Origin: Nitrosopumilaceae archaeon | GTDB taxonomy: Archaea > Thermoproteota > Nitrososphaeria > Nitrososphaerales > Nitrosopumilaceae | Assembly (NCBI GenBank): GCA_965208905.1 | Contig: OZ242365.1 | Coordinates: 1,248,001-1,312,000, forward strand | Direction: 5' to 3' | DNA length: 64,000 nucleotides | In this document: in pieces, positions 3,077 through 37,973 of the stretch | Numbering within the stretch: position 1 is the stretch's first letter | Layout of the letters: the number at the start of each line of letters is the position of its first letter | Position numbers and translations under genes: made by a program | Notes under the pieces: model-generated | Databases searched by the model: none | Seen by the model: only the letters and a program-made list of their open reading frames with translations | Told to the model about the DNA's origin: nothing

Positions 3077-3084
3077 GATACGTC
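3077..3084. repeat. Left copy of 8-bp target-site duplication GATACGTC
   Basis: Abuts the left TIR; identical to 37966-37973. Confidence 0.92.
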
Positions 3085-3234
3085 TGAACTGTCCCATTAA
3101 TGGCGCCTGTCCCAAAGTGGCGCCTAGAGTAGAAACTGGGGTCTGATTGTTTTGTAGATATTTCCTACGTGGAGTGGAAATGAGGTCGAAACAGTGGAGT
3201 GGAAATGATGGTAGGTGACCTGTATTTCCAGTCC
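3085..3234 (+). repeat. Left end L1: 41-bp TIR plus subterminal GGAGTGGAAA module
   Basis: TIR 3085-3125; motifs at 3126 (AGAGTAGAAA), 3171 and 3196; GACCTGTATTTCCA at ~3217. Confidence 0.9.
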
Positions 3235-3651
3235 AGATCTGTCAACCTTAAAACCTACAAAGTTATTTCTATTTTGATGGACAAGGAACCTTCTGATGCG
3301 CAAGTCAGTTGTAATGCCTCCCAGAATAAATGGCCTCCAGTACACAGATACACACCATATGTGATATGTGGTGACGTTTCTCAACCATACTTTAGTTTAG
3401 ACAGAATCATCATATTCGGAGTGACATTCCTCTGACAGAACAGGTCTTCAATACGACGCTTGGAAAAGCTCTAAGACGCGTCATACCAGAATGGAATGCC
3501 AAAAACGTACTTATACAACAGACCAAGACACTACAGGAATCCTCCTAAGGTTTTGGGGATTAGATACATGAGCATACCACCTTGTGGGGCTAGTGCTCAA
3601 TGACTATCCCGTGCACTGTTAATATATGACCACATGTGTCGGTATAACAAC

Positions 3652-3909
3652 ATGGACGTAGATACACTCAAAAGATCCATAAGTCCCAGGTACGGACCCC
3701 TCTACACTATTGGCATTACCAACGATCCGAAAAAGCGTAAGAAGGAACACGAGCAAGACGGTAAGGATACGAAGTATTGGCATGATTGGGCAGTAGACAG
3801 TAAGAGCGTGGCAGAGGCTGTGGAGAAATACTTCATAGGTAAGAAAACGAAGGGTGGTACCGGCGGAAACGTTGATGGCTCCAAGACCGTTTACGTGTAT
3901 ATATTCTGA
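3652..3909 (+). CDS. Small GIY-YIG-like protein, paralog 1
   Basis: YTIGITNDPKKRKKEH...W...AEAVEKYF...GGTGG...VYVYIF; TTAATATA about 26 nt before ATG 3652; T-run after the stop. Confidence 0.7.
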   Translation: MDVDTLKRSISPRYGPLYTIGITNDPKKRKKEHEQDGKDTKYWHDWAVDSKSVAEAVEKYFIGKKTKGGTGGNVDGSKTVYVYIF

Positions 3910-4003
3910 TTTTTTTTGTAGGTGCTTCCATGTGTTTGAGTTGCTAAAACCAATTGATGTTATGTGTTGTCTACTCGATTATATAATTCCCGAAGTTGGT
4001 TGG

Positions 4004-4090
4004 TACTGGTAAGAAACGCTGACCTGTTGTATGGTTGGGAAGGTGCTGACCCGGAGTGGAAACGGGGGTTTTGCACAATCAGGCATGCAG
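4004..4090 (+). repeat. TIR-less internal site (B-arm plus GGAGTGGAAA)
   Basis: CTGGTAAGAAACGCTGACCTGT...TGGGAAGGTGCTGACCC then GGAGTGGAAA (4053) and GCACAATCAGG, matching the other end modules. Confidence 0.75.
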
Positions 4091-4170
4091 AGCTGAAATT
4101 AATTCGCGTGTAATGTATGACCGGATCCGCCCATCAACTGTAGTATGCGGACATCGGTGGTGAGTTAATA

Positions 4171-5406
4171 TTATGTGCTGGCATAATTTTCCGCCCGCTC
4201 CAACGCAAGCTTTACATCCATATCGCTAGGGTCGTGCTTTTCTGCCTTTTTGAGCCACTCTTTGGCATCCTTGTACTGTTTTAGTTTGAAATACTTCATG
4301 CCGACTTCATACGCGGTGTCAACGGTATCCGCCAACTCATGCGCCTTCTTGGAAAATTTAATTGTCATATCAGGGGTAAACCCAAGCTCCTCCAGCCTGC
4401 TGGTGGCCAACCAATATGCATCTGCTGAGTCGGCGCATATCTCAAAGGCCCTATCCACATGCCCCTGATAATCCTTACCTGCTGCTCTGAACCCGTCCAC
4501 TATATCGCACATGATCCGCGCCGCATCCATGCGTAGCCATTTGGCCTCTTTCTTCTTGCTCGTGGGAATTACCTTCACATGCTCCAAGAGGGAGTTTAGT
4601 GCCTGATGTAATACGTCTCCAGCACCTTTGTTACCGATATGTGCCAATGATCTTCCGTAACACATTAGATACTTCCAGTCGGAGTGACCGCGCACTAATC
4701 TCAGACTGCTCACCGCATCCTTATGCCTACCTGCCTCCGAGAGCTCCCGGCCACTGTAAAAAGCATAGTCGTCGCGACCAAGCACAACCTCAAACAGATC
4801 CTTTGCCAATGCGATGCATACTCTTGGGCTGAGATTCGTGTCTTCCAGTGTGTGGGTATGGGTGTGGCGTCGCTCGAACAGATCATCATATTCTTCCACA
4901 TCGATTTTTCTTTCATCAAGTACACGGTTGGTGACATCTAAACTGTTGACCGCCTCCACACTCTGGAAGTTTAGCGCGGATGCTGCAAGGGACTCTATCA
5001 GCATGGGTTGCCGTATATCACATGCTTCGTCAATCAGGGTATTAAGATCCTTGATACTAATAGTAAAACTACCGTCATTGGCAATGTCCTGAACATGTTT
5101 GCGGAGCACCTCATCATGGCGGCGCGTGTTATCCACACACCAACTGTCTGACCAGTCCAACATATCCATCACCAACAGCACATTGAGTATGAGTTCTTGC
5201 GGCATGGGTTCGCCGTCCCCATACATGAATCTCTTTTTTGTCCTGCAAAACTCCTCGATCATAGTACAGACTGCCACCGGAACCTGCTTTTTGAGAACTG
5301 GAGGGAGTCTGTACGCCTCGATATGCTCCTCAAGACGGTGCAGGTGGCTCAACGTCCGCTCATACGTGAGGTGTGAGAAGATAGTGTTTCTGTTTTTGTG
5401 TCGCAT
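4171..5406 (-). CDS. Putative HEPN-domain plus TPR-repeat protein
   Basis: VAVCTMIEEFCR, NFQS and LFERRHTHTH (R-x4-H) in the N-terminal half; TPR-like helices, e.g. AYEVGMKYFKLKQYKDAKEWLKKAEKHDP, in the C-terminal half. Confidence 0.6.
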   Translation of the reverse strand: MRHKNRNTIFSHLTYERTLSHLHRLEEHIEAYRLPPVLKKQVPVAVCTMIEEFCRTKKRFMYGDGEPMPQELILNVLLVMDMLDWSDSWCVDNTRRHDEVLRKHVQDIANDGSFTISIKDLNTLIDEACDIRQPMLIESLAASALNFQSVEAVNSLDVTNRVLDERKIDVEEYDDLFERRHTHTHTLEDTNLSPRVCIALAKDLFEVVLGRDDYAFYSGRELSEAGRHKDAVSSLRLVRGHSDWKYLMCYGRSLAHIGNKGAGDVLHQALNSLLEHVKVIPTSKKKEAKWLRMDAARIMCDIVDGFRAAGKDYQGHVDRAFEICADSADAYWLATSRLEELGFTPDMTIKFSKKAHELADTVDTAYEVGMKYFKLKQYKDAKEWLKKAEKHDPSDMDVKLALERAENYAST

Positions 5407-5964
5407 TATGGTCTATGATGCGCGCCCCATTGCAAAAATGTTTTGTTCATTTGTCGAATGTTATGGGTACACGTTTAGGCTAAGCGAACTTTGCGTCACA
5501 ATCATACCTGAATACCACATTAACCCATTCCTTTGATAACATAGTTGCAGGCAGACATGGAGTGCGGCGCGGACACATTCTGACAGTTCCCACCCTAGAT
5601 CTCTGTCTTGATGTTGGATTCTGCGACAGTTAACTACTTGGCGGTGGCCATGTACCAGTCGAGTATGGGGTATGCGGACCTCCCAGTACAGGTACATCAC
5701 ACCCACGGCATCCTGGAGCGGGAGCTCACCAGACTGGACGCCCTCTCCACATGCGACCTCCATACGCTGGTGCCGCGCAGACCCATACAGTACGACCCAC
5801 TGCAGGGAGTCTCTACCGAGTGATTAGTGGTTGTTAACTTGTTGTGTGGCAAGGTGCTGGCCACAAGAGGCCGCAATCCGGAGACTTACATAGATGGGTA
5901 GACAGGGATCCGGCCCACATGGGCGTTCAGACGGTTAATATGGCCATCCCATAGTTTTGAGCCA

Positions 5965-6234
5965 ATGGACAAGAACGAACTCAAGGAGTGGATAGAGGCC
6001 ACAAGAGGCAGTGTGCCTTATGGCGCGTGGACTATCGGCATTACCGTCAATCCGGCGGAACGCAAGAAGGCGCATGAGGCTGACAACAAGAATGTGGTGT
6101 TCTGATGGCATCGGGAGGCCAACAGCAAGCAAGTAGCACAAGATGCGGAGACATACTTCCTGGACAAAGGGATGAAGGGCGGCAGAGGCGGCAATATTGG
6201 TGACAACGAGACCGTCTATGTGTACATATTCTGA
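5965..6234 (+). pseudogene. Small GIY-YIG-like protein, paralog 2, with in-frame TGA
   Basis: MDKNELKEWIEATRGSVPYGAWTIGITVNPAERKKAHEADNKNVVF*WHREANSKQVAQDAETYFLDKGMKGGRGGNIGDNETVYVYIF; TGA at 6103-6105 aligns with a Trp of paralog 1. Confidence 0.85.
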
Positions 6235-6335
6235 TTTTTTAGATGGTTAGAGACGGCTAGGACACTCTATAGACGGAACTATGACAGATGTAATGGTCTT
6301 ATAGAGATGATCGATTGAGTGGGTGCGGCGGCGCC

Positions 6336-6830
6336 CTATGATATGGTTATTGGTCGTCTAATCTTTAACTTTGTTGCAATATCAATAAGGTTTCGTGTTT
6401 TGTTTTCAAGTTCGTTGTTTTCACCGTACTTCTTCCACATGTGAGATCGGCTGTTCTTTAGTACTGCCGGATCGTCGAACTTCTCAACCAGCCAAGATTC
6501 TATCTCAATAATTTGGGCAACACCTGTCGTATAGTTATCCTCATCTGGAAGTTGTGTGAGGTTGTTTTCAATATTAAGACGCAACAGTTCTAGCCGCCGT
6601 ACATGCCTTGTGAAATATAGTTCGAGCATCATCGCCTTCTCGTCACTGTCATGCATGTCCATGGATTTGGAGTTAATCGTGCTTGTAATTTTTATCAGTT
6701 CACGTACGTTGTTGTTTATTGTTTTTTTCACATACCTTTGCCGTTTATTTTCATCTGACCTTCTACTCCACCATACATATAGGCCAAATCCAACACTAAA
6801 CAAGGAGAAGTATGGTATAATTTCCTCCAT
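6336..6830 (-). CDS. Hypothetical protein with N-terminal membrane anchor
   Basis: 164-aa ORF; hydrophobic YFSLFSVGFGLYVWW followed by a basic coiled segment. Confidence 0.6.
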   Translation of the reverse strand: MEEIIPYFSLFSVGFGLYVWWSRRSDENKRQRYVKKTINNNVRELIKITSTINSKSMDMHDSDEKAMMLELYFTRHVRRLELLRLNIENNLTQLPDEDNYTTGVAQIIEIESWLVEKFDDPAVLKNSRSHMWKKYGENNELENKTRNLIDIATKLKIRRPITIS

Positions 6831-6851
6831 GATCTGTCCATCTACCGTATA

Positions 6852-7544
6852 TTATTTAGGTGTTTCAGGATCAAAAGTCAGATCATCCAACATGCGATAC
6901 CAGTCTGAGTCCTCAATATCAAGATAAAACGAAATTGTAAAATCTGTACGCATATTCATGGATGCCGGCTTATTCCGTTTTATTGGGCCAAATTCGAAAA
7001 TACCAAATCTTACCTTGACGGTCTCGGCCACGTTTACAAATTCATCAAACTTGTCATGGGTTGAGCCGCACGTGTTTTGGATTAGTTCGTAGTCCAGTCG
7101 GAGGAGATTTGTGCTGTTATGATATCTGATTCCATCCAGTCCAAACTCTAAACTCATTTTTTTAATAAAATTATACCGATTCACCCGAGTCAATTTCTCT
7201 CTGATATCATTTACTAATTGATGATTTGTTAGTGGCATTTCATCTATGGGTCCTTCCAAACCATGCAGGTTTTTTAACAGCACGTATGCATCCTCTCTCG
7301 CCTCCGTTATTCCGAGCAAATACAATTTCCTTGTTTTGGTACGAAAGAGAAAATTGCATAATGCCGTTCCTATCTTTGGCTTTTGTATCCACACTTTTCC
7401 GTGTATGTTACCCTCTTTCAATTTTACATCTCCTATTCTAGGGAATCGCGATTCGTCATTATTCTCTACTTCTTTAAGCGCATTAAAAATTACATCAGCA
7501 TCATTAGTCACTATTTCGTAAACCTTGGCTGAGCGACTTATCAT
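6852..7544 (-). CDS. Hypothetical protein
   Basis: 230-aa ORF, 21 bp upstream of 6336..6830 on the same strand. Confidence 0.6.
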   Translation of the reverse strand: MISRSAKVYEIVTNDADVIFNALKEVENNDESRFPRIGDVKLKEGNIHGKVWIQKPKIGTALCNFLFRTKTRKLYLLGITEAREDAYVLLKNLHGLEGPIDEMPLTNHQLVNDIREKLTRVNRYNFIKKMSLEFGLDGIRYHNSTNLLRLDYELIQNTCGSTHDKFDEFVNVAETVKVRFGIFEFGPIKRNKPASMNMRTDFTISFYLDIEDSDWYRMLDDLTFDPETPK

Positions 7545-7970
7545 TCACAAGCCTCCGTTATTTAGCCTGCCGAACATGAAGCACCGACCATTCAGCCGCC
7601 TCCCGCTCTTCATATCCAATGCATCTGACATGGGCAAGACCATGGTGTGGATCCGTTCCATGGCGTGGTCTCACAGCATGCCTACATAACCCCACAACTC
7701 TTATCTGGTTCACTATTCGTCAAATTAAGTGGACTAGGGTTGGGCACTTAAGTGTATGGGTCCCTGACGGCTGTTAAGTTAGTGTGACCTGGGATCTGTT
7801 GTTAAATCTGTGACTTGGGTGTTAAAGGAGTGATCTGGGGGGGGGGGGGGGACAGTGTTAAATCTGCGAGGTCGTGTCGGGGGCGGTGCTTGTGCTAAGC
7901 CTAAACGCGTACGACGGCGCGGCCAGATGATATAAATAGCCACGCTGCCGATCACGCCCAATGAACAGAA

Positions 7971-8228
7971 ATGAATAGTAAGGGCATAATTGACGGCATA
8001 CTGGATGTTATAAGGCAGGACAGTGGGCCAATATGGTCCGTTGGAACCACATCAGATCCGGAGGCATGTAGGAAAAAACACAATGCCAAAGGATGGCATG
8101 TATGGGTAGCAGACGATTTGGATACCGCCTTATACGTCGAAGCCCATTTCAACCATACGAAACTAACTGGACATGGTTTGGGTTGTCCAATGAATGGCCC
8201 GAGCATCTTTGTGTATCTGTTTTGGTGA
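7971..8228 (+). CDS. Small GIY-YIG-like protein, paralog 3
   Basis: WSVGTTSDPEACRKKH...WHVW...ALYVEAHF...GHGLG...IFVYLF aligns with paralogs 1 and 2; TATAAATA upstream. Confidence 0.65.
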   Translation: MNSKGIIDGILDVIRQDSGPIWSVGTTSDPEACRKKHNAKGWHVWVADDLDTALYVEAHFNHTKLTGHGLGCPMNGPSIFVYLFW

Positions 8229-8360
8229 GTAGGATACTCTGTACTGGTCCCGATTCTCGGCCCTACACCCTAGGAGCCGAACCCTTGGCAACTGGAAAGT
8301 TAGTGGGGGATGAGATCTCTTGAAAAGTTGGGAGATGGCGGCTCGACGGATACAATATAG

Positions 8361-8623
8361 TGAACTGTTCAGTTAACAGCGCCTGTTCAATTATAGCGCC
8401 CGGAGTGGAAACGTCGGTAGTGCACGATCAGGTGTGCGGAGTGGAGATGAGGTCAAAATGGTGGGGTGGAAATGGTGGCCGTATACCTAGGTTTCTAGTC
8501 TAGGGGAGCTGGGAAGATACGGTGACCTGTACAAAAGTGGGAAATGTGTGACCTAGAATCTGGGAAATGTGTGACCTACCTACATTTCCACTCCGCTCAA
8601 TCAACCACCATTTCCACTCCAGG
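8361..8623 (+). repeat. Internal left-end variant L2 with motif module, B-arm and an inverted motif pair
   Basis: TGAACTGTTCAGTTAACAGCGCCTGTTCAATTATAGCGCCC (29/41 to TIR); motifs at 8402, 8438, 8463; B-arm 8506-8554; TTTCCACTCC at 8585 and 8611. Confidence 0.85.
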
Positions 8624-8658
8624 TGTAATTGGTTACCACGAAGCATTACGTAATATTA

Positions 8659-9273
8659 CTAATCACCATCATAAGCACGAAACAGCTTCAGGAGCCACCG
8701 TTTGTTACACTCATTCTCTTTGATAAACTTCTTGACGGATTTTATTAGATTCTCTAAACTAGCCTCCATAGGTTCAGACATTGAACCAGGTAAGCGATAA
8801 AACGGTCTCAACACATCTGGATCCGACTCCCTCATAAGCTTACGGTTGTATGAATCGACAGCTCTATGTAAGTGGTGAACATCTTTCTGCAATTTGTGAC
8901 TCAGATATGAGATTCCACCGGAGTTGGCTAAACCCTCATAACCACTCTTTTGTAATGGTAGAAGGACATCCCGTAATGTCCTCGGTTGTGTAGTGTGAGG
9001 TCCCACTTGTAATGGTAGAAAGATGTCCTTACCTGAACCAAGTATATTTTTGGAGACTCTCATGGTCTCATACATTACGTCAAGATCTGCAAGCAACATC
9101 TTCGCAAAGCGTATACGATGTAATACATTGCGTACATGCCAGTGGAGGATGAAGAATACAAGTCCCACACCAATAGCAACGACTTCAATAATTGTCGGCA
9201 ACCAGTCAGGAGGTAACATCACTATACATGGTGTAATGGTTACGTAAATACCCCCGCTACACACAATCGACAA
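8659..9273 (-). CDS. Hypothetical membrane-anchored protein
   Basis: TM segment TIIEVVAIGVGLVFFILHW; the true start may be the internal MLPPDW. Confidence 0.55.
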   Translation of the reverse strand: MSIVCSGGIYVTITPCIVMLPPDWLPTIIEVVAIGVGLVFFILHWHVRNVLHRIRFAKMLLADLDVMYETMRVSKNILGSGKDIFLPLQVGPHTTQPRTLRDVLLPLQKSGYEGLANSGGISYLSHKLQKDVHHLHRAVDSYNRKLMRESDPDVLRPFYRLPGSMSEPMEASLENLIKSVKKFIKENECNKRWLLKLFRAYDGD

Positions 9274-9325
9274 TCATAAATTAGATGTTACAACACCCAT
9301 CAAAAATTAAAAAATGAAAAGTTGT

Positions 9326-10627
9326 TTACTCTCTTTGAGCCTTTGTTGCTACCTCTATGAGGGTCTTCCACTTGTTTGTACCATCTATGATAATACCCGC
9401 GGCTTCAGCTGGAGTTTGACCATCTGCTAGTCCAAGGTGTGGGCGTACACAGTTATGATATATCTTCAAGCCACTTACTATGGGGGAGTCCTCGCGCTTG
9501 AGACCACGCGCTGCCTCCTCGCGATACCTGAGTGTATTACCATTGAATGATTCCATTTGGTTGTTGTGGTGGATGCCGTCAAACGCGACATCGTTTACAT
9601 GTTGGGTTTCTTTGTGTAGGAAGTTCTTGGACTTGTACTGTTTCTCCCATGCGTTGTGAAAGTTGGCCGCACCATCCGATATCAGAGTATCTGGAACTTT
9701 ACCTGCAATCTCCTTTGCATGTGCAAACATGGGCGCGACATCATCATTTCCTTTGTGTTCTGCAACCATCTTTGAAATCCAATACCTTGTACCAGAGTCC
9801 AGCATAGCGAATAGATATCTCTTCCTTCCCTTGACCTTCATGTGTAACTCATCAGTACGCCATGCCTCACTGAGCCGTGGGTGGACTGTATCGATATATG
9901 ACTCCATTAGTTCTGCATACGTAGAGCCCCAGTTCTGTATAGTCCTGTAGGTTATCTTTAGTCCCTTCTGCTTTAGATGGTTTGCCACCTTCCTAGATGA
10001 TAGTCCGGCAAAGTACATTCCTACTGCTGCGCAGACATCATCAGGCGTAGCGCGCTTCCTCTCGAATCCAAGGTTTTGGATGAATCGTTTCCCACATGTC
10101 TTGCATCCATACTGTTGCTTCTTGCCTCGTACACCCTTCTTGATGATGTGTATGGAGTCGCAGAACTTGCATCTGGTATGGTTATGTGGCTGTATTATAC
10201 GTCGTTCCCCATTATGCCACTGTACTGCCTGAATGTGCTTACATGTACTGCCCGTATGCATATGGTCTGGGCATGAACATATCCATCCATTGCCAAAGTC
10301 GCGTACTTCATAGGATTCATCCTTGCTTTGTGATTTCACTAAATAGTGGTCTGATGCGATACGTTCAACCTGTCCGGCGGCTTGATGTATCATCATACCG
10401 CGGTCAGCGCGTGCCTTCATTCCAAGCCGCTCTTCCAGCGCGTATGCGTGCTTACAATATTGTGTATTATCCGGACAGTTACAATCCCAGCCGGCCGTAG
10501 TACGGCATAGTGTATATTGTACATCTGGTGTGGTCTGTGAACAAACCTGATACGTAGACTCATCCATACGATACATCTGATGTTTCTTTTTTGTTATGTT
10601 TATTCCTCGTTGTTTTCTATAATTCAT
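9326..10627 (-). CDS. SWIM-Zn-finger / Zn-ribbon / HTH / IS6-like DDE transposase, copy 1 (433 aa)
   Basis: Start MNYRKQRG set by homology to copy 2 and the shared promoter. SWIM motifs CNCPD..CKH and CSCPDH..CKH; CKFC..CKTC; WRTDE, LISDG, NNQMESFN (DDE triad). Confidence 0.88.
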   Translation of the reverse strand: MNYRKQRGINITKKKHQMYRMDESTYQVCSQTTPDVQYTLCRTTAGWDCNCPDNTQYCKHAYALEERLGMKARADRGMMIHQAAGQVERIASDHYLVKSQSKDESYEVRDFGNGWICSCPDHMHTGSTCKHIQAVQWHNGERRIIQPHNHTRCKFCDSIHIIKKGVRGKKQQYGCKTCGKRFIQNLGFERKRATPDDVCAAVGMYFAGLSSRKVANHLKQKGLKITYRTIQNWGSTYAELMESYIDTVHPRLSEAWRTDELHMKVKGRKRYLFAMLDSGTRYWISKMVAEHKGNDDVAPMFAHAKEIAGKVPDTLISDGAANFHNAWEKQYKSKNFLHKETQHVNDVAFDGIHHNNQMESFNGNTLRYREEAARGLKREDSPIVSGLKIYHNCVRPHLGLADGQTPAEAAGIIIDGTNKWKTLIEVATKAQRE

Positions 10628-10662
10628 TTGTGTGGTAACGTATCGGTAGTATTTAAGGTGGT
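10628..10662 (-). promoter_or_regulatory. Promoter of transposase copy 1
   Basis: ACCACCTTAAATACTACCGATACGTTACCACACAA-ATG, 33/35 identical to 36470-36504; contains TTAAATA box. Confidence 0.75.
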
Positions 10663-10835
10663 AAAAGTCAATCTTAAGGTATGGAAGTACGCCTGTGAAA
10701 GTTGTGGCCATACACGGACTACGCAGAACGAAGTTTATTCCAGTATGGAAGTTAACATTCCGTACAGTTGCCAGATAGTTGGGACTAGATGACTGGAGGT
10801 TGCCAATCGATTGGTTTGACACTGCTTGAAATTAT

Positions 10836-11552: not shown

Positions 11553-11555
11553 TAA

Positions 11556-23648: not shown

Positions 23649-23654
23649 ACATTC

Positions 23655-30449: not shown

Positions 30450-30482
30450 AAACCAGAGTCCTATACAACGCTGTCAAAAAAG

Positions 30483-30525
30483 TGACTTGGGGTGGAAATG
30501 GTGGTTGTATACCTACGTTTCCAGC
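30483..30525 (+). repeat. Partial internal site
   Basis: TGACTT-GGGGTGGAAATGGTGGTTGTATACCTACGTTTCCA, close to 8463-8497. Confidence 0.75.
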
Positions 30526-30712
30526 GTACAGTACTCAACTCAATAAACCTTAAAACAGCACCGCCACTACGTTTTATACAGGATGGTAATTTGAATGAAA
30601 TGTCAGGAATTTGTATTTGAACCGACTCTGAAGGACATTATACATCGGGGACTTGTGTGTGTTGGAGTCAATATGGGCGCAGCCATCGCCAAAGGCAGAC
30701 GTCCGAATAGTC

Positions 30713-30767
30713 CGATATAGTCGCCGCACGACGATATAGTCGCCGCACGACGATATAGTCGCCGCAC
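30713..30767 (+). repeat. 19-bp tandem repeat (~2.9 copies) upstream of mod 2
   Basis: Unit CGATATAGTCGCCGCACGA. Confidence 0.9.
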
Positions 30768-30937
30768 TCAATCTAACGAAGCTCGGTCATCATGTTCACC
30801 GTGGCAGATATTCACAATTTCAAGGTTTTGGGATGAGTTTGTAGGGGATGATATTGTAGATCATCCACACACATTCAAGGTAATACCGCGGTGTTACACC
30901 GGGAAAATCAAGTGTTTAGTAAGACGGGTGGTGGAGT

Positions 30938-33337
30938 TTGGGTAGACGGCGCACCAAACAATCGGGTAGTGGTCCAGTTGGTGAATACAAGCACGAGAAA
31001 TTCAAGCGTAAGAACACCCCACCTGCCGGGCTGGTCAAAGGAGAGAAAGACGTAGAATCCTACAAATCATACTATCCTGAAATCGATCCGCATGACTCAC
31101 CATTTCTGATGTTCAAGAACAGGCACGAGTCTGACCAAATTAATGTCCAGACGGTCTCACTACACACACATGAATCAATACACCCACCCACAATAGTAGA
31201 ACCGATTCTCAAAGGGCGGCAACACGTACTGGATGACTTTTTTGAGATAACGCGACCACGCAACGAGGCCGTTGAGTTTTACAAGCATAATGATGACTGG
31301 ACCAACCGCCTAATTGCCGGTGACAATCTACTGGTAATGAACTCGTTATTGGAAAAGGAGAATAAGGCTGGCCAGGTAAAGATGATATACTTTGACCCAC
31401 CATATGGTATCAAGTTTAACAGCAACTTTCAACCCAAAGTTTTTGATACAAGTGTAAGAGACCGTGTAGATTCCATAGAGGAGCGACCAGAGAGTATCAA
31501 AGCATTCCGTGACACATGGATGTTAGGCGTTCACTCATATCTATCTGCAACACGAAAGCGATTGGAGTTGGCACGGCGCCTATTGTCTGATACAGGCTCT
31601 ATATTCGTACAGATATCTAATACAAATCAACACTTCATGAGAGTACTGCTTGATGAAATATTTGGTCCTGAGAATCTTGTGTGGCAGATTTTGTTTAGGA
31701 CGAAGGGTGGCGCAGGTGTTGGTGCTTGGCCTCATGCATACGACTACATATTATGGTACGCCAAGGACAAAAAGCAAGCCATTGAATCTGGACATTTACA
31801 CCAATTATGGGAAGATCGTACAGATGAGAGTATTAAAAAAACATTTGGAGGTATGGAGTTAAAGGATGGGACAGTAAAATCGCATGGTGGAAAAGTGTTA
31901 CCACCGGGAGCCAGATATTGTAAAATTATGCCTCTGCACTCACAGGGAGAATCGACAACAGATAGATCAAAACCACACACATTCCCAAATAATGAGACAG
32001 TATCCATACCAAGCGGTAGACAGTGGATAGTGGGTCATGACGAATTGGATGTTTTATATCATAAAAAACGAATACGTTTCACAGAGAAAAGAGCAGATTG
32101 GATATACTATCCAGAAGATGCTCCAAGAATAATAACAAATGTCTGGGAAGGGATGCAAATAAATCAGAAAAACTATGTGATTGAAACAAAAGACAAGGTA
32201 CTGGAACGGTGCATACAACTAACCACGGATGTGGGTGATTTAGTACTAGACATTACCGGTGGAAGTGGCGTGACCGCATATGCTGCCGAAAAGTGGGGCA
32301 GGCGTTGGATAACATGTGATGTATCACGTGTGTCTATTGCAACCATAAAATGGCGCCTACAAACTGCTTCATTTCTCTGGTATAAACTGACCAATGATGT
32401 CGAAGGTGTGGATAGTGGTTTTGAATACGAGACGTTCTTCAAACGATCCGCAAAGACTCTATCAAACACTGAAGATTTGGATGAGAGCATTCGGTATGAC
32501 AAACCCAAGATAGTAAAGGAGAGGAGTCGCGTAACAGGACCATTTACAATAGATGCCATACCGGCACCCACAATATCAAACGATACCGTCAAGACTTCTG
32601 TACGAAGCGACTGGTTAACAAAACTGGCTGACTCTGGTATTGTGACAAATACCGGACAGCGACTGGTGTTTGATAGAGTAGAGCGAAACACGGATGTAAA
32701 GTCCCCAATACACGCCTCTGCATTTACGGGAAAGAAAAAGACTGCCATCTCCTTTGGGTCGGAACATGGGCCCATGAGTGTGTATCAAGTGGAGTCTGTC
32801 TTGAACGATGTTAGTACTGATGCTATCTTTATTGCATTTGTCTTTGATCCACACGCACAGTCTCTTATAGGCAATACAGAGAATGCATTTGCCGTTAGCA
32901 TGAACAACGACATATTGATTGAGGATCTTAAATCCAAATCCACTGACCAACCATTTAGCATCATCGGTGAGCCAGACATTAAAATCCGCCACAACAACGA
33001 CAAATTCACAGTAGAGTTGTTGGGCTATAATTACTACGACCCACATAAAGGGAAGAACATAGTCGGCAACACACAGAATGTGGCAATGTGGATGCTGGAT
33101 ACTGATTATGACGGAAGAACATTACGAGTTAAGCAGTTCTTCTTTCCAAATAAACAAGATGCGTGGAAAGATCTAGAAAAAACACTGCGCAGTAGTGTAA
33201 ATACCGAACTGTTGGAAAAGTATCTTGGCACAGAATCTATCCCATTTGAAAGTGGAAATTATAAAAAAATTGCCATCAAGGTGATTGATATGGATGGTAA
33301 CGAGTCTATGAAGGTGGAAGGATTAGAAGAATGGTAA
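30938..33337 (+). CDS. mod: Type III modification methyltransferase Mod 2
   Basis: WTNRLIAGDNL, IYFDPPYGIKF, AFRDTW, DITGGSGVTA..AEKWGRRWI, WMLDTDYDG. Confidence 0.9.
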   Translation: MGRRRTKQSGSGPVGEYKHEKFKRKNTPPAGLVKGEKDVESYKSYYPEIDPHDSPFLMFKNRHESDQINVQTVSLHTHESIHPPTIVEPILKGRQHVLDDFFEITRPRNEAVEFYKHNDDWTNRLIAGDNLLVMNSLLEKENKAGQVKMIYFDPPYGIKFNSNFQPKVFDTSVRDRVDSIEERPESIKAFRDTWMLGVHSYLSATRKRLELARRLLSDTGSIFVQISNTNQHFMRVLLDEIFGPENLVWQILFRTKGGAGVGAWPHAYDYILWYAKDKKQAIESGHLHQLWEDRTDESIKKTFGGMELKDGTVKSHGGKVLPPGARYCKIMPLHSQGESTTDRSKPHTFPNNETVSIPSGRQWIVGHDELDVLYHKKRIRFTEKRADWIYYPEDAPRIITNVWEGMQINQKNYVIETKDKVLERCIQLTTDVGDLVLDITGGSGVTAYAAEKWGRRWITCDVSRVSIATIKWRLQTASFLWYKLTNDVEGVDSGFEYETFFKRSAKTLSNTEDLDESIRYDKPKIVKERSRVTGPFTIDAIPAPTISNDTVKTSVRSDWLTKLADSGIVTNTGQRLVFDRVERNTDVKSPIHASAFTGKKKTAISFGSEHGPMSVYQVESVLNDVSTDAIFIAFVFDPHAQSLIGNTENAFAVSMNNDILIEDLKSKSTDQPFSIIGEPDIKIRHNNDKFTVELLGYNYYDPHKGKNIVGNTQNVAMWMLDTDYDGRTLRVKQFFFPNKQDAWKDLEKTLRSSVNTELLEKYLGTESIPFESGNYKKIAIKVIDMDGNESMKVEGLEEW

Positions 33338-36075
33338 AAGGTATAGACAAGCTCATAATCTGCAACCCATATGAAAAGCCCAACCAATACTACAAGTACG
33401 ACTCGGAACTTGACGGTTATCACAAGATGACTGGGAGGCGTCCATCCGGATACCAAAGCATGAATGAAAATGGTGTATATGGCATACATAGGGAAATACA
33501 CACTGTCAATAAAATACGAAAACTTGTTGATGAGTGGCGGGATGCTGGTTATCCAGATACTACCAAAACCACCAAAAAACTACTAAATCACTGGAAAAGC
33601 AAGAAAGAGATGAGATTGTTTTTCTGCCAGATGGAGGCTATAGAGACCATCATATATGCAATGGAACATCGAGATAAAGTCAACAAAATAATACAGGGGG
33701 ATGATGGTCCATTCAGCCGTTATTGTACCAAGATGGCTACCGGTACTGGCAAGACAATCATAATGGGGCTGTTGATTGCATGGCAGGTTCTAAACTCCGG
33801 TTCAAGATACACAAAAAATATTCTGGTTGTAACCCCCAACCTAACAGTCAAGGATAGACTACAAGTACTACATCCTGGCAATCCCAAGAACATCTATGAT
33901 GAGTTTGACATGATGCCACCGGGAATGAAGCGTGAAATGTTGGGCAGTGCCCGCATCACTATAACCAATTTTCAGCAGTTTAAACCAAAAGAGGGAAGTA
34001 AGAACAGTGTAGTAAAACTTGGTAGACAAGGTGCAAAGTCATTTGCCGCATCCATTGTAGGTAGGCAGACGAAAAACATTCTGGTCATAAATGATGAGGG
34101 GCATCATGCGTGGAGACCATCATTTTATTCTAATGCAGATAAAAAAGAGGGTAAAGAGGCGGGAATGTGGACAAACGGTCTGGACCTCATACACGGTATT
34201 TGTAAAATCACCCAGTGTTGTGATTTTTCAGCCACACCATTCGTTCCAACCGGTAAGAGTGCTACAGAAGACACTTTGTTTGGGTGGATTATATCAGACT
34301 TTTCACTTAGTGATGCAATAGAGTCGGGCCTTGTCAAGACTCCTAAAACACCTAAAACCGGTGATAGTTTTTACCGCCTGTATGATGAAGATGTTGCAAA
34401 AGCCCTTGGCTCAACAAAGATGGATAGACTGCCAGACAAGGTTGAAAGAGCATACAGCCTTCTTGGTAAAGGATGGGAGAAAGTTAACAAGTTATGGAGA
34501 GAAAACAGGCGGCCCACACCACCTGCCATGATTACTGTTTGTAACAACACACGTCATGCCAAACGCATAGCAGATAATCTTGAGCGAAACACGGTTGGAC
34601 TGAATACAGATCTTGTCAAGTCTGAATCCCTTCTACATATTGATTCAACAACCATAGAAGATGATACAAGTATGCGGGACAAAGTAGCTACAGTTGGAAA
34701 AAGTGGCGAGTCGGGTGAAAAAATCTGCAATATTGTATCTGTTGATATGCTGACTGAGGGATGGGACGCGAGAACAGTCACCCATATTATGGGACTTCGG
34801 GCCTTCAAATCACAACTTCTATGCGAGCAGGTGATTGGCAGAGGTCTGCGCCGCACCAGTTACGATGTAAATGAAGACGGATATTTTGAAACGGAGCATG
34901 TTGACATATTAGGTGTTCCCTTTGCCGGCATATTGTCAGAAGAGGCAGAACAACTTGGAGGAGGGACGACAGTAATACCGGTGGATATTTATCCAGACAA
35001 GCCGGAACATATTATCGCGTGGCCCATCATAACGGAGATCCGCGAGACCGTTACGTATAAGACTGAAATAGACTGGGAAAAAATCACACCACTTGACTTT
35101 GACAAAACAATACCTTCGTCAGTGTCACTAGGCCCTCTTATTGATGGATGGGTTTCCAAAGACAGTGTGACCTTTGAACTCAAAAACCGAAAGCAGACGG
35201 TCATGTATGGTATTTTGCAGAGTATAATGAGTAACTACCACCAGCTCGAAAGGGAGCAGATAATTGCAGAGTATAGTCCATATGTCAATAATCCACAGGG
35301 GCTGACTATATCCATACTTTACAACATCAAAGAGTATGTGAGAAGATTCATTGATATGAAATTTCCAGACAGATCTGAACAGGTATTGTTTGACCACCGC
35401 GATGATGTTGCGCGACATATTTACAAAAATCTCGTAACTGCTGAGCCACTAACAAAGCCCAAAGTAGAAGTCGATGGTACAGATAACACAGACATACCGC
35501 GTAGGGCGACTACGAATCAAAGGCGCTTTGCTCCAAAAAAGACGCATCTTAACTTAATTACCGCGGCCAGAGATTTTGAGATACGTATAGGTAAGATGCT
35601 TGACAAGGATCAGCATGTACATTCTTGGATCAAGTCGGATATGGTGAGATTTTCCATACAATACGAGCATCCCGACGGTTCAAGACGCAACTATCTGCCA
35701 GACTTTATTGCACATTTGAATACTGGTGTTCAACTAGTCATAGAAGGTAAGGGCAAAGAAGATGATGTTGATATTGCCAAGAAAAAAGCATTAAGACGAT
35801 GGGTAGATGCAGTTAATCAAGATGGGAGGTATGGTGTATGGGATTCTACTACACTATATTCAGACAAGGATCTCCAAGCCAGCCTAACAGATGCCATACA
35901 GGCTTCATCGGATAGGCCATATACAGTAGTATGTGAGAGGTGTGGTTTCACCGCTAGCACGCTTGCCGAATCAGTTGGTGTATTTGGTGTTGAGAATAAC
36001 AGGGGAATACTCAAGGTATCTACACTATGCGTTGACTGTCAAAAGGTGATTAAAAACACATCAAGCAACAACTAG
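33331..36075 (+). CDS. res: Type III restriction subunit Res 2
   Basis: FFCQMEAIET, KMATGTGKT, NDEGHH, LTEGWD, EQVIGRGLRR, YLPDF..IEGKG; overlaps the mod 2 stop. Confidence 0.9.
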   Translation: MVKGIDKLIICNPYEKPNQYYKYDSELDGYHKMTGRRPSGYQSMNENGVYGIHREIHTVNKIRKLVDEWRDAGYPDTTKTTKKLLNHWKSKKEMRLFFCQMEAIETIIYAMEHRDKVNKIIQGDDGPFSRYCTKMATGTGKTIIMGLLIAWQVLNSGSRYTKNILVVTPNLTVKDRLQVLHPGNPKNIYDEFDMMPPGMKREMLGSARITITNFQQFKPKEGSKNSVVKLGRQGAKSFAASIVGRQTKNILVINDEGHHAWRPSFYSNADKKEGKEAGMWTNGLDLIHGICKITQCCDFSATPFVPTGKSATEDTLFGWIISDFSLSDAIESGLVKTPKTPKTGDSFYRLYDEDVAKALGSTKMDRLPDKVERAYSLLGKGWEKVNKLWRENRRPTPPAMITVCNNTRHAKRIADNLERNTVGLNTDLVKSESLLHIDSTTIEDDTSMRDKVATVGKSGESGEKICNIVSVDMLTEGWDARTVTHIMGLRAFKSQLLCEQVIGRGLRRTSYDVNEDGYFETEHVDILGVPFAGILSEEAEQLGGGTTVIPVDIYPDKPEHIIAWPIITEIRETVTYKTEIDWEKITPLDFDKTIPSSVSLGPLIDGWVSKDSVTFELKNRKQTVMYGILQSIMSNYHQLEREQIIAEYSPYVNNPQGLTISILYNIKEYVRRFIDMKFPDRSEQVLFDHRDDVARHIYKNLVTAEPLTKPKVEVDGTDNTDIPRRATTNQRRFAPKKTHLNLITAARDFEIRIGKMLDKDQHVHSWIKSDMVRFSIQYEHPDGSRRNYLPDFIAHLNTGVQLVIEGKGKEDDVDIAKKKALRRWVDAVNQDGRYGVWDSTTLYSDKDLQASLTDAIQASSDRPYTVVCERCGFTASTLAESVGVFGVENNRGILKVSTLCVDCQKVIKNTSSNN

Positions 36076-36291
36076 ACATAACACTAACAACATAGGTAAA
36101 AAAGTATCTGCAACACAGTTACCTTCTCCCAAAACACTTGAGAAGTGATAATAGTTCAACTAGTTTCCTTCTAGATGAACATCATCCCTGAGCGACAACT
36201 TCGTACTGACAATGACTGACATAACGAAGAGAAATGTGAGAACACCAAATGTTACCACATTTCCCACATTTTTCTAGGTTGCTGTAACTTT

Positions 36292-36327
36292 CCAGTGCCT
36301 CCCAGTGCCTCCCAGTGCCTCCCAGTG
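36292..36327. repeat. 10-bp tandem repeat (CCAGTGCCTC, ~3.6 copies)
   Basis: Seen directly, about 180 bp upstream of transposase copy 2. Confidence 0.85.
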
Positions 36328-36469
36328 TGTATGTTTATGCTTAGGATACTGAATTTCCCAGAAAACCACATGAATGGGAACTTCAATTGAAAATCTTGAT
36401 CAAATACAGAGGCAAAATTAAGAGGGTTTAGTCATGAAGGGCACATTCCCTCCAGTCATACCGTAAATC

Positions 36470-36504
36470 ACCACCTTAAATAGTGCCGATACGTTACCAC
36501 ACAA
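36470..36504 (+). promoter_or_regulatory. Promoter of transposase copy 2
   Basis: TTAAATA at 36476-36482, ATG at 36505; conserved with copy 1. Confidence 0.75.
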
Positions 36505-37806
36505 ATGAATTACAGAAAACAGAGAGGCATATTGATAACAAAACAAAAGAATCAGATTCGTCAAGTAGATGATTCTACATACGAGGTGTGTTCACAGACT
36601 GAACCTGGCATCAAGTATACGTTGACACGTACATCCCGTAGTTGGGATTGTAACTGTCCTGATGATGCGATATATTGCAAGCATGCGTATGCTCTGGAAG
36701 AACACCTTGGCATGAAACCACGCGTAGACAGGGGCCGTTTAATACACGAGATGGGAGGTCAGGTGGAGTGCATATCACTAGACCACTATCTAGTCAAATC
36801 ACAGAGTATTGATGAATCATACGAAGTACGTGATTTTGGTAGTGGTTGGATATGTTCATGTCCAGACCACATACATACAGGGAGTACATGCAAACACATT
36901 CAAGCCGTACAGTGGAGCAATAGAGAACGGCGTGTAATAGAAGAACCAAGGCAGATTTTATGTCTGCGCTGCGGTTCATCCGACATTATACAGAAGGGGG
37001 TGCGCAGCGGCAATCACCGGTTCCAATGCAAATCATGCGGCAAATACTTTACAGACAATCTTGGATTTGAGGGGCGGCGTTCCGCCCCAGAGTACATTAC
37101 AGTCGCTGTAGAACTGGTGTATGCGGGACTGTCCATACGAAAAACCGTAAAGGCACTACACTCAATATACTGCAAGGTTGGCCGCTCTACCATACATCGC
37201 TGGGCAGACCAGTACGGCCATATGATGGATGAATATCTTGATGGGATAACTCCACTGGTGGGGGAGGAGTGGCGTACCGACGAAATATACGTAAAGATAC
37301 GCGGGAAGCGAAAGTACCTGTTCGCGATGCTGGATTCAGAGACAAGATATTGGATTGCCAGACAGGTTGCCACACACAAAGGTACTGATGATGTACGACC
37401 GATGTTTAAGCAGGCCAAAGACATAACAGGTAAAATTCCATCCAAACTGATATCTGATGGTGCATCCAACTTTGCCGAGGCTCACAAAGATGAGTACGCT
37501 CCCAAGAACTACCTGTGGAAGAGTTCCGTGCATGAGTCACACATACGCATGGATGGCGATATACACAACAACCAGATGGAGTCTTTCAATGGAAATACCA
37601 TACGGCTGCGCGAGAAGATTGTACGCGGTTTGAAGAAGGAGGATGCGGCACTGCTTGCAGGTTTGAAGGTGTATCATAACCATGTAAGGCCACATCTGGG
37701 ACTGCCTGACGGACAGACTCCAGGCGAGGCATCAGGTATACATGTTGATGGTGTAAACAAGATACTCACGATTATACGCGCTGCTGCCAAGGCGCGTAAC
37801 AACTAG
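36505..37806 (+). CDS. SWIM-Zn-finger / Zn-ribbon / HTH / IS6-like DDE transposase, copy 2 (433 aa)
   Basis: Same architecture as copy 1: WRTDE, LISDG, NNQMESFN; ends 118 bp before the right TIR. Confidence 0.9.
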   Translation: MNYRKQRGILITKQKNQIRQVDDSTYEVCSQTEPGIKYTLTRTSRSWDCNCPDDAIYCKHAYALEEHLGMKPRVDRGRLIHEMGGQVECISLDHYLVKSQSIDESYEVRDFGSGWICSCPDHIHTGSTCKHIQAVQWSNRERRVIEEPRQILCLRCGSSDIIQKGVRSGNHRFQCKSCGKYFTDNLGFEGRRSAPEYITVAVELVYAGLSIRKTVKALHSIYCKVGRSTIHRWADQYGHMMDEYLDGITPLVGEEWRTDEIYVKIRGKRKYLFAMLDSETRYWIARQVATHKGTDDVRPMFKQAKDITGKIPSKLISDGASNFAEAHKDEYAPKNYLWKSSVHESHIRMDGDIHNNQMESFNGNTIRLREKIVRGLKKEDAALLAGLKVYHNHVRPHLGLPDGQTPGEASGIHVDGVNKILTIIRAAAKARNN

Positions 37807-37830
37807 CTTTTTCATTTTTTATTCATTCGG
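37807..37830 (+). terminator. Oligo-T terminator of transposase copy 2
   Basis: CTTTTTCATTTTTT right after the stop; copy 1 has CTTTTCATTTTTT. Confidence 0.6.
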
Positions 37831-37850
37831 TATCTGGGCCTTTTATGCCT

Positions 37851-37965
37851 GGAGTAGAAACGTAGGTTGTCTTGGCGGAGTGGAAATATGGGTCTGGAGT
37901 GGAAACGTAGGTCAGGCAGATGTCAGGCGCCACTTTGGGACAGGCGCCATTAATGGGACAGTTCA
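37851..37965 (-). repeat. Right end: three motifs plus 41-bp TIR
   Basis: GGAGT(A/G)GAAA at 37851, 37877, 37896 (top strand); TIR 37925-37965. Confidence 0.92.
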
Positions 37966-37973
37966 GATACGTC
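37966..37973. repeat. Right copy of 8-bp TSD GATACGTC
   Basis: Identical to 3077-3084. Confidence 0.92.

Follow-up and report, generated by a model that had tools for sequence, protein, structure and literature searches.

In bacteria, the movement of defence islands by large DDE transposons is well documented; in archaea, to our knowledge, there is hardly any record of it. Tn7 and Mu have TG...CA termini, several subterminal repeats per end, a transposase with an RNase H fold, and a 5-bp target duplication, and the Tn7-like hallmark is this 5-bp duplication together with TnsB, TnsC, and a target selector. Tn7-like cargo is rich in defence systems (PMC8649781). Thaumarchaeal IS-like transposons have been described with one or two genes (Krupovic et al. 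2019, PMC6563490), and the part of that survey available to us reports no large DDE cargo transposon. For sponge-associated ammonia oxidisers, an enrichment of transposases and restriction-modification (R-M) genes has been reported, in the available part of the source without a mechanism (PMC7848895).

The IS6 family has the tip consensus GGTTCTGTTGCAAA (PMC6807381) and a canonical size far below 35 kb (Varani 2021, PMC7986276), with a single ISfinder member reported to carry one passenger gene (PMC7986276). Long clostridial IS6-like elements have N-terminal zinc-finger extensions, and those of clade i have a further N-terminal domain and a transposase of about 450 aa (PMC7986276). The ISCpe7 group corresponds to clades h/i of Varani 2021 (PMC7986276) and VII/VIII of Harmer and Hall 2019 (PMC6807381), and the latter authors hold that long IS6-like elements do not belong in IS6/IS26 proper (PMC6807381).

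Our window, i.e., the whole 64,000-nt stretch that was analysed (contig OZ242365.1 of assembly GCA_965208905.1, a Nitrosopumilaceae archaeon), contains a 34,881-bp element with more than 20 ORFs at 3085–37965 (Table 1). Its terminal inverted repeats (TIRs; TGAACTG... and ...CAGTTCA) are identical at 41/41 positions as reverse complements, and an exact GATACGTC flanks both, so the perfect 41-bp TIRs and 8-bp duplication of the original prediction are real. The raw complementary arms (3083–3125 and 37925–37967) are 43 nt long at 100% with a spacing of 34,799 nt; their two extra bases are part of the 8-bp duplication and not of the TIR. Each tip consists of two CTGTCCCA-N5-GGCGC(C) repeats, and no transposase gene adjoins the left end, both as originally described. 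Exact copies of the tip repeat lie at 3089, 11828, and 22119 on the plus strand and at 37944 on the minus strand, and allowing up to three mismatches gives 21 matches vs 9.35 ± 2.99 in shuffled sequence. For the subterminal GGAGTGGAAAT repeats there are 20 matches vs 1.08 ± 0.90 expected. These repeats are on the plus strand at both ends of the element, i.e., direct rather than inverted between the ends, which is unusual for transposase binding sites. These repeats, the second transposase paralogue, and the seven internal left-end modules were not part of the original prediction.

Table 1. Features of the element and its flanks, in window coordinates (TSD: target-site duplication).
Feature	Position	Strand	Evidence
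Left TSD copy, GATACGTC	3077–3084	.	Single copy in the empty sites of G005 and the X19 contig
Left-end tip, type A, 41 bp, two CTGTCCCA-N5-GGCGCC repeats	3085–3125	+	
Left subterminal module: three GGAGTGGAAAT-like repeats on +, one inverted copy (3224–3234)	3126–3235	+	
Partial left-end module, type C-like tip (CTGGTAAGAAACGCTGACC...) plus GGAGTGGAAAC	4003–4100	+	
Cargo ORF, 411 aa, TPR matches weak and under the Pfam cut-offs	4171–5406	-	
Left-end module, type B tip (TGAACTGTTCAGTTAACAGCGCC...)	8361–8505	+	
Right-end module, type C tip (GGAGCTGGGAAG...), of an inverted, truncated tnp2 element	8506–8625	-	
tnp2, second transposase paralogue, 59% identical to tnpR	9326–10822	-	
Left-end module, type A tip, 38/41 to right tip	11824–11965	+	
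Type III R-M system 1: Res 12012–14381, Mod 14530–16305	12012–16305	-	REase_III 437.8 bits, MTase_III 460.5 bits
Cargo ORF with cyclophilin, S26 peptidase-like, and thioredoxin domains	16828–18900	+	
IS3-family insertion sequence, ends known to within a few bases	19303–20549	.	
Left-end module, type A tip, 40/41, third base G instead of A	22115–22260	+	
Left-end module, diverged type A tip, 30/41	23384–23480	+	
Cargo ORF with DUF3800	23655–24410	-	
Left-end module, type C tip	29160–29300	+	
SIR2-family defence-type gene	29328–30449	-	PADLOC SIR2, 86.4 bits
Partial left-end module, type D tip (CTGTCAAAAA...GTGAC)	30442–30530	+	
Type III R-M system 2: Mod 30938–33337, Res 33331–36075	30938–36075	+	
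Type C right-tip remnant, then short CCAGTGCCTC tandem repeat	36256–36295	+	
tnpR, 433 aa, two SWIM fingers, CxxC...CxxC zinc ribbon, HTH, DDE core	36505–37806	+	Intact, adjoins right end
Right subterminal module: three GGAGTGGAAAT-like repeats, strand as at left end	37850–37906	+	
Right-end tip, type A, 41 bp	37925–37965	-	
Right TSD copy, GATACGTC	37966–37973	.	

The original prediction also included an empty site with a single GATACGTC between the flanks, and such sites exist. In a genome of the same genus (G005), the left flank is 98% and the right flank 96% identical, the two overlap by exactly 8 bases, and the joined site reads ...TTAAAGATTTTGATACGTCTGCAAAGATG... with one GATACGTC. From an unrelated sequencing run (X19) comes a 47-kb contig that aligns with positions 1000–3086 and then continues as CAAAGATGTACATCTG..., which is the right flank, again joined through one GATACGTC. 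Because both join the flanks in this way, the 34,881-bp block is a true, recent transposition insert. A 10-kb contig from run X1 has only 6 differences in 2,087 bases of flank (99.7% identical); its match ends at the same base, 3086, and its next 2,687 bases are unlike the island, so judging from that end point it also appears to be an empty site. Contigs from the source sample (X15) are identical across the left junction. The target was intergenic DNA upstream of a gene with a Spondin_N domain, and what the junctions show is a simple insertion. The element has the features of a unit transposon: one TIR pair surrounds the transposase and the cargo, the target is duplicated, and relatives have the site empty.

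None of the 9 other genomes of the genus has the island as a block, and nowhere did we find the complete 35-kb unit a second time. Of 10 genus genomes, two have type A tips, and beyond these such tips turned up only in contigs of one further species record. Type A tips are wholly missing from G005, so type A material is recent in this lineage.

The transposase gene next to the right end, tnpR, encodes the SWIM-finger DDE enzyme that had been proposed, oriented towards that end, with Pfam scores above the gathering thresholds: DDE_Tnp_IS240 (PF13610) at 48.4 bits (cut-off 27), rve at 33.3 (cut-off 32.6), and SWIM (PF04434, CxCxnCxH) at 29.4 (cut-off 19.6). The catalytic residues D259, D318, and E359 are invariant in 27 relatives, as are the SWIM residues C49, C51, C58, H60 and C117, C119, C129, H131. 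The HTH stands in front of the DDE core, and a structure model predicts an RNase H-like core whose best PDB matches are DDE transposases and integrases, TnsB and MuA among them. The conserved part of tnp2 starts at an internal MNYRKQRG and matches PF13610 at 43.2 bits (cut-off 27).

The suggested IS6 relationship holds up, both in the DDE_Tnp_IS240 match and in the nearest annotated relatives found by tblastn, which are labelled 'IS6-like element ISCpe7 family transposase' (25–29% identity, E down to 2e-16). These alignments span tnpR residues 129/183 to about 419, and none of 3,644 tblastn records covers at least 80% of the query, so the SWIM region is not common to the ISCpe7-type relatives. 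The best NCBIfam model is transpos_IS6 (tnpR 92.5 bits, tnp2 84.8 bits), and because these scores are below the equivalog cut-off of 125, a mechanistic analogy with IS26 is weak. All 79 of the 79 tnpR-family loci that we found are in Nitrosopumilaceae/Thaumarchaeota records.

PADLOC identifies two type III Mod + Res pairs and one SIR2 protein in the cargo, which is a defence island in the sense of at least two systems side by side. The original prediction spoke of a large archaeal defence transposon, but cargo is not solely defence: large surface Ig-like proteins are encoded by a relative of 10.26 kb. The IS3-family element in the island has a transposase with rve / rve_3 / HTH_21 domains (19360–20394, minus strand) and occurs in 13 copies in the genome at at least 99.7% identity. 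Among the ORFs scanned, we recognised no AAA+ regulator (TnsC/MuB-type), TniQ/TnsD, or other target selector. Tn7-like membership was considered and rejected, given this lack of a TnsC-type ATPase or target selector and a duplication of 8 rather than 5 bp.

Could the island be a plasmid or virus that an IS6-type cointegrate event fused to the chromosome? Cointegrate formation is reported for the IS6 family (PMC7986276), and the GC content of the island (45.4% vs 45.6% for the genome) is what one would expect of an element circulating in close relatives. However, a cointegrate needs two directly repeated full copies, and here there are inverted left and right ends and a single tnpR. Domain scans of the element's ORFs recognised no replication, conjugation, capsid, or integrase genes, there is no tRNA gene in positions 1–42000, and no tnpR relative was found in the viral contigs searched. 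We consider an integrated replicon very improbable.

Mosaic in structure, the element combines at least eight left-end modules with two transposases. Seven of these left-end modules are internal and all are on the plus strand, and no matching right end was found for any of the seven; those with type B, C, or D tips fail to match the right end, which is type A. The type B tip at 8361–8505 is the tip type of an element at 1708–1710 kb in the genome. From outer to inner, the type A left tips agree with the right tip at 41, 38, 40, and 30 of 41 positions, i.e., the outermost is perfect and the innermost most decayed, with decay that is not monotonic. The remnant at 36256–36295 shows that something ends there, just upstream of tnpR.

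We think it likely that this is an IS6-related unit transposon whose cargo accreted before its last jump and which then used its outer left end. The TnpR protein, or a paralogue in trans, would bind the multi-repeat tips and the subterminal GGAGTGGAAAT repeats and bring together the type A left end that lies outermost and the only type A right end. These ends would be joined to a target cut with an 8-bp stagger, and repair of the stagger would produce the GATACGTC duplication. The cargo (two type III R-M systems, SIR2, DUF3800, the cyclophilin-thioredoxin protein, and others) would have been gathered earlier, as elements nested into one another's only permissive zone, from the left end to the transposase gene. 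Using the outer left end with an inner right end would then leave a stack of superseded left ends that all face the same way. The uniform orientation of the internal left ends is not predicted by nested insertion alone. Of the original proposal that the unit moved recently in one step, the recency is established by the empty sites in G005 and X19. Since no second whole copy was found, we infer one-event movement of all 35 kb from the ends; as a mosaic, the element probably grew in several earlier rounds before that jump.

Alternatively, a small type A element may have inserted at GATACGTC and grown in place, with the cargo and other end modules arriving later and separately. A mosaic of pieces from several elements would fit this, the 13-copy IS3-family element is a separate insertion, and all family members examined hold their cargo between the left end and the transposase gene. 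Complete nested insertions, however, would not look like seven left ends without matching right ends, and the X1 flank is 99.7% identical yet island-free, which leaves little time for eight or more events. The lack of any type A tip in G005 also counts against growth in place, and we regard it as improbable.

Family members help to put the preferred reading, accretion before the last jump, in context. Duplications of 8 bp recur at other TIR pairs: 12/47 loci examined in other genomes have TIR pairs with exact 8-bp duplications, enclosing elements of 2.6–10.3 kb with cargo, and this genome has two more, an 8,983-bp element (ACCATATC) with an Eco57I-like enzyme as cargo and a non-autonomous 2,075-bp element (GTTTTAGG), for 14 other family elements in all. 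At loci L035 and L037, the 10.26-kb element is 99.96% identical at two sites with different duplications. A 3.6-kb element of this genome, which begins GGAACTGGTGCA, has two copies with exchanged 8-bp flanks, which recombination between the copies can also explain; one relative's tip begins GGTTCTG. The 35-kb element is the largest member seen, and cargo members of 2.6–10.3 kb are common in Nitrosopumilaceae genomes.

The 8,983-bp element has one internal left end and L025 has two left-end modules upstream of its transposase, so that with the seven in the island, all ten additional left ends are oriented as their element. This suggests another reading, in which left ends are docking sites to which an IS26-like targeted reaction, catalysed by the transposase, would add 'left end plus cargo' units, circular or excised, in head-to-tail order, with no need for nested transposition. 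IS26 is reported to build arrays of directly oriented copies in a conservative, targeted reaction (Harmer and Hall 2019, PMC6807381; Varani 2021, PMC7986276). Different tip types occur on otherwise similar elements, and in run X4 a type A tip is joined to a region that bears a type C tip here, suggesting exchange at common subterminal repeats. Against such cassette capture, no circular unit or precise series of left-end-to-left-end junctions was seen, the stacked left ends differ in tip type (not what a site-specific reaction that joins like ends would produce), and the transposase is only 25–29% identical to IS6-like enzymes. We find it quite unlikely.

More speculatively, the double-SWIM branch might be an undescribed 'accretive' archaeal transposon. 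Left ends would serve as directional capture points, the extra SWIM finger would read GGAGTGGAAAT, and the variable tips (CTGTCCCA, CTGTTCAG, CTGTAACA, CTGGCACA, CTGGGAAG) would determine the specificity of the ends and could be swapped from one lineage to another. We hold this as a tentative possibility, on the doubtful side. If it were true, defence, surface-protein, and other cassettes would be stacked head-to-tail before one transposase, which would be the archaeal equivalent of the way genes accumulate with IS26 or in integrons.

The host is a sponge ammonia-oxidising archaeon, and the block holds defence and other genes. As a 35-kb example it has clean boundaries, a recent move, and a known empty site; it is set in a family of 2.6–10 kb cargo elements with 8-bp duplications and carries a legible record of cargo build-up. 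It offers a concrete route by which R-M, SIR2, and surface-protein genes could spread among sponge-associated ammonia oxidisers. The ends and a single transposase gene make a compact system that is suited to a mini-transposon assay.

Several known systems resemble the element in part. Casposons and other thaumarchaeal integrated elements share the host phylum, multiple genes, TIRs, target duplications, and R-M genes, but casposons use a Cas1 integrase rather than a DDE transposase (PMC6563490). Tn7- and Mu-like elements share TG...CA termini, subterminal repeats, a large defence-rich cargo, and an RNase H-fold transposase; they differ from our element in its 8-bp duplication, single transposase gene, and repeats that are direct between ends. 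The ISCpe7 group includes the nearest annotated relatives of tnpR and also has N-terminal zinc-finger extensions, but its members are bacterial, 1.2–1.8 kb long, and without reported cargo, and the SWIM region is absent from the matches. With IS6/IS26 (IS26, IS257, IS6100), the element shares an IS240-type DDE core, an HTH before the core, and the 8-bp duplication. IS6 elements are 0.7–0.9 kb and at most 1.76 kb, whereas this one is 34.9 kb (relatives 2.6–10.3 kb), far above canonical size as had been noted. IS6 tips are 14–20 bp, start with GG, and have G7 and a CTGTT...CAAA motif, whereas here they are 41 bp with two tandem repeats, plus three subterminal repeats. IS6 elements normally carry the transposase gene only; here the transposase has two SWIM fingers and a zinc ribbon, and cargo is the rule. 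The tip (TGAACTGTCCCATT...) retains G2, C5, T6, G7, and T8 of the IS6 consensus, with T as its first base and CAAA in the inner repeat only. Given G2 and C5-T6-G7-T8 in its tips, a duplication of 8 bp, and ISCpe7-type transposases as nearest annotated relatives, the element does not form the undescribed class that had been suggested; we class it as a unit transposon of IS6-like type whose ends are complex.

A perfect inverted repeat of 43 nt pairs window positions 3083-3125 with 37925-37967, and base-by-base reading resolves it into a 41-bp TIR: positions 3085-3125 read TGAACTGTCCCATTAATGGCGCCTGTCCCAAAGTGGCGCCT, and 37925-37965 its reverse complement. Both ends of the island directly abut an exact GATACGTC (3077-3084 and 37966-37973), and within each tip there are two CTGTCCCA-N5-GGCGC(C) units. 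The factual statements of the original prediction, i.e., a 41-bp TIR, exact GATACGTC flanks, a transposase ORF at the right end and two-unit tips, all hold. The island is an insertion with the signature of an 8-bp staggered cut, its ends are matched and its transposase gene is intact.

The unoccupied target that had been predicted, ...TTAAAGATTTT-GATACGTC-TGCAAAGATG..., is present in another genome of the genus (G005), where the left flank (98% identical) and right flank (96%) are adjacent and overlap by exactly 8 bases. We also compared contigs from public sequencing runs with window 1000-19000 for junction evidence. A 47-kb contig from run X19, which comes from a different study and carries a different organism label, matches 1000-3086 and then continues into right-flank sequence, so it is a second, independent empty site. 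Another is probably represented in run X1, judging from where the match ends: its 10-kb contig has 6 differences in 2,087 bases up to 3086, followed by a further 2,687 bases unlike the island. Over the left junction, the window is matched without differences by contigs from run X15, which is probably the source sample. For X1 and a further run, X4, island stretches without contig cover were not counted as absent.

Each of the 9 further genus genomes lacks the island as a block, and type A tips (see table) occur in 2 of the 10 genus genomes. The exact type A tip was not found outside its own genome in the genome-contig collection, and a looser pattern gave three contigs (one Cenarchaeum MAG) as the sole matches beyond the genus genomes. 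We conclude that the island is a recent insertion. GC content gives no sign of a foreign origin, as the island (45.4%) equals the genome (45.6%), and window 1-42000 contains no tRNA genes.

The insertion is placed just 5' of a gene whose product has a Spondin_N domain (window 1559-3060, minus strand; 120 bits), and it may affect that gene's promoter. A domain typical of extracellular matrix proteins in animals is notable in a sponge-associated archaeon.

Layout of the island, with the tip types of the family and two further bounded elements of the same genome (window positions unless a contig is named; R-M, restriction-modification)
Feature	Position	Strand	Details
Left end, type A, outermost	from 3085		
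Left end, partial, type C-like	4003		
TPR-like ORF and ORFs of no known function	between 4003 and 8361 modules		
Left end, type B	8361		
Inverted element without left end, abutting type B module	right end 8506-8625		right end, 204-aa ORF, tnp2, 238-aa ORF
Left end, type A	11824		
Type III R-M system 1, cyclophilin-thioredoxin protein, IS3-family element, M10-like peptidase ORF	between 11824 and 22115 modules		
Left end, type A	22115		
Left end, type A, diverged	23384		
DUF3800 and ORFs of no known function	between 23384 and 29160 modules		
Left end, type C, then SIR2	29160		
Left end, partial, type D, then type III R-M system 2	30442		
Right-tip remnant, type C	36256-36295		before tnpR and type A right end
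tnpR	36505-37806	+	433 aa; above Pfam thresholds for DDE_Tnp_IS240, rve and SWIM
Tip type A			CTGTCCCA
Tip type B			CTGTTCAG
Tip type C			CTGGGAAG...GTGACC
Tip type D			CTGTCAA...GTGACC
Two further tips	L025		CTGTAACA, CTGGCACA
8,983-bp element	own genome		duplication ACCATATC; type C tips; own transposase; Eco57I-like enzyme
2,075-bp element	G000:C1:1903198-1905272		duplication GTTTTAGG; without transposase

Few of the unassigned cargo genes could be matched to families. ORF 27805-29124 matches one PHROGs family whose function is not known, ORF 22334-22846 weakly matches one such family, and ORF 3634-3909 has a weak GIY-YIG match below the Pfam cut-off; the other small or unassigned cargo ORFs scanned matched nothing in PHROGs or Pfam. 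Two tandem repeats lie in the right-hand part of the island: CCAGTGCCTC x3 just upstream of tnpR (36296-36330) and, ahead of R-M system 2 (30700-30770), one with a unit of about 21 bp (CGCCGCACGACGATATAGT...). The IS3-family element (19303-20549; rve, rve_3, HTH_21) has 13 copies of at least 99.7% identity in the 2.2-Mb genome, one within the island and another beside the 8,983-bp element, which looks like a recent burst.

The transposase at the right end, tnpR, has two SWIM fingers (C49, C51, C58, H60; C117, C119, C129, H131), then a CxxC...CxxC zinc ribbon (C153, C156, C175, C178) that scores 33 bits with the NCBIfam IS1/IS1595 zinc-domain model (cut-off 28). The HTH region of tnpR is helical, and the core is RNase H-like, with D259, D318 and E359 invariant. 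Its internal paralogue, tnp2, is 59% identical. The best family model for tnpR is NCBIfam transpos_IS6, at 92.5, below the cut-off of 125. Fold searching returned generic DDE/integrase cores at TM ~0.3 (ISCth4, retroviral integrases, TnsB, MuA), and a PDB sequence search gave no useful match. Among 72,556 plasmid records, the best-ranked matches, except two, were Clostridium transposases of the IS6 family or 'IS6-like element ISCpe7 family'. Their identity is 25-29% and confined to the zinc ribbon, HTH and core; query coverage stays below 80% in all 3,644 records with a match.

A protein search found 646 relatives, few of them named, as 'IS1/IS6 family transposase' or 'DDE-type integrase/transposase/recombinase' from Thaumarchaeota or Cenarchaeum. 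In the representative-genome collection, all 79 loci with relatives are in Thaumarchaeota/Nitrosopumilaceae records (Nitrosopumilus, Cenarchaeum and other MAGs), no relatives were found in viral contigs, and the island's own genome has 13 loci matching tnpR over at least 355 aa.

Elements whose transposase has two SWIM fingers (double-SWIM) share complex ends. Every left end consists of a tip of 2-3 tandem repeats, three GGAGTGGAAAT-like repeats and one inverted copy, while at every right end three GGAGTGGAAAT-like repeats, in the strand orientation of those at the left, precede the inverted tip. The GGAGTGGAAAT repeats go with double-SWIM transposases: they lie <500 nt after the gene at three loci in the own genome, follow tnp2 past an intervening ORF, and occur at two loci in other genomes, about 860 nt past the gene at L025 and as one copy at L027. 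None of 40 single-SWIM loci has them within 350 nt downstream of the gene. The second SWIM finger may read these repeats. When genome contigs were scanned with the GGAGTGGAAAT pattern, the matches listed were mostly chance ones in unrelated bacteria. In two double-SWIM elements (window 8659-9273; L025:11300-12100), the right-end repeats are separated from the transposase gene by an ORF of no known family, which may be an accessory gene.

Tips come in several types, all of which retain G at position 2 and CTG at 5-7. Run X4 shows a type A tip attached to a region that bears a type C tip in the island, so tips seem exchangeable between lineages.

To find other elements of the family, we searched for inverted repeats around the transposase gene at the 47 of 79 loci with near-full-length matches. 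Twelve have both a TIR pair (24-67 bp) and an exact 8-bp duplication, delimiting elements of 2,557 to about 10,260 bp; these duplications are not accidental, because the chance is 1 in 65,536 per offset tried. In one genome record, two 10.26-kb copies (L035 and L037) are 99.96% identical, have different flanks and carry different duplications (TTAGAAAA vs CAAAATTC), which demonstrates that a cargo-bearing member of this family moves as a whole. This element encodes two large proteins (998 and 762 aa; L035:1340-6585) with bacterial surface Ig-like domains, so that in sponge-associated archaea candidate host-interaction genes, too, are moved by the family.

Scanning the own genome (G000; contig C1) for all end modules gave three bounded elements: the island, at 34,881 bp, and those of 8,983 and 2,075 bp. 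The outer flanks of the 8,983-bp element are ~1.7 kb apart in G005 with other repeats between them, giving no clean junction. A type A miniature element (genome 1903319-1903576) has no 8-bp duplication and was not counted. The GTTTTAGG duplication also flanks an unrelated element at L043, in a Nitrosopumilus MAG record, which may be chance or target preference.

The same genome contains a 3,602-bp single-SWIM element with 50-bp TIRs starting GGAACTGG and a DNA-methylase-like ORF. It has two identical copies, both outside the window (G000:C1:1337692-1341644 and G000:C1:1851328-1854929), whose 8-bp flanks are swapped: one runs from CAACGGAC at its left to GTTATTTT at its right, the other the opposite way. 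In front of one copy, its left end is duplicated in tandem (358 bp). Either recombination between the copies plus a later inversion or a cointegrate-type history would fit this.

The seven internal left ends of the island share the orientation of the outer one. The 8,983-bp element, with one internal left end, and L025, with two modules upstream of its transposase, follow the same rule. This makes 10 of 10 extra left ends oriented with their element, ~0.001 if random, though the cases are few and not fully independent. The island probably grew by nested insertion. Extra DNA would be tolerated only between the left-end module and the transposase gene, and elsewhere it would destroy the element. 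If a second element landed in that zone pointing the same way, a larger transposon would arise, bounded by the outer left end and the inner right end, and its next jump would leave the outer transposase and right end behind. Repeated rounds would pile up left ends in front of a single transposase and a single right end, as observed.

The nested model agrees with the internal left ends, none of which has a partner right end, and with the innermost type A tip being the most decayed. However, from outer to inner the type A tips match 41, 38, 40 and 30 of the 41 tip bases, so decay is not monotonic, and the other tip types are co-oriented without obvious reason. These two misfits leave capture of DNA at left ends, instead of nested insertion, as a less probable alternative. 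The island may have moved by cut-and-paste or by replicative transposition with resolution.

The original prediction was that the whole unit moved recently in one step and may represent an undescribed class of large archaeal defence transposon. This was largely right, but 'class' is too wide a term: what is new is a double-SWIM branch of the IS6-like superfamily that carries cargo and, as far as searched, is restricted to Nitrosopumilaceae. We found no large IS6-like cargo transposon in archaea in the available text of two IS6 reviews (PMC7986276, PMC6807381), a thaumarchaeal mobilome survey (PMC6563490) and a sponge-thaumarchaeon comparison (PMC7848895), or by full-text literature searching, though supplementary tables might list some of the genes as IS. 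In the available text of the survey, four 'IS6' text matches are IS605, IS607 and IS630 (PMC6563490).

Compared with IS6, the island shares the Pfam core and 8-bp duplication, but differs in size and content and falls below the NCBIfam cut-off. The published IS6/IS26 end consensus is GGTTCTGTTGCAAA (PMC6807381); some relatives' tips start with its first seven bases, GGTTCTG, and the tips here keep G2 and CTG at 5-7, an ambiguous match. Because two of these comparisons favour IS6, two do not and the TIR is ambiguous, we file the element under an IS6-like (ISCpe7-like) transposase lineage that now drives unit transposons, whose complex ends are Tn7- or Mu-like.
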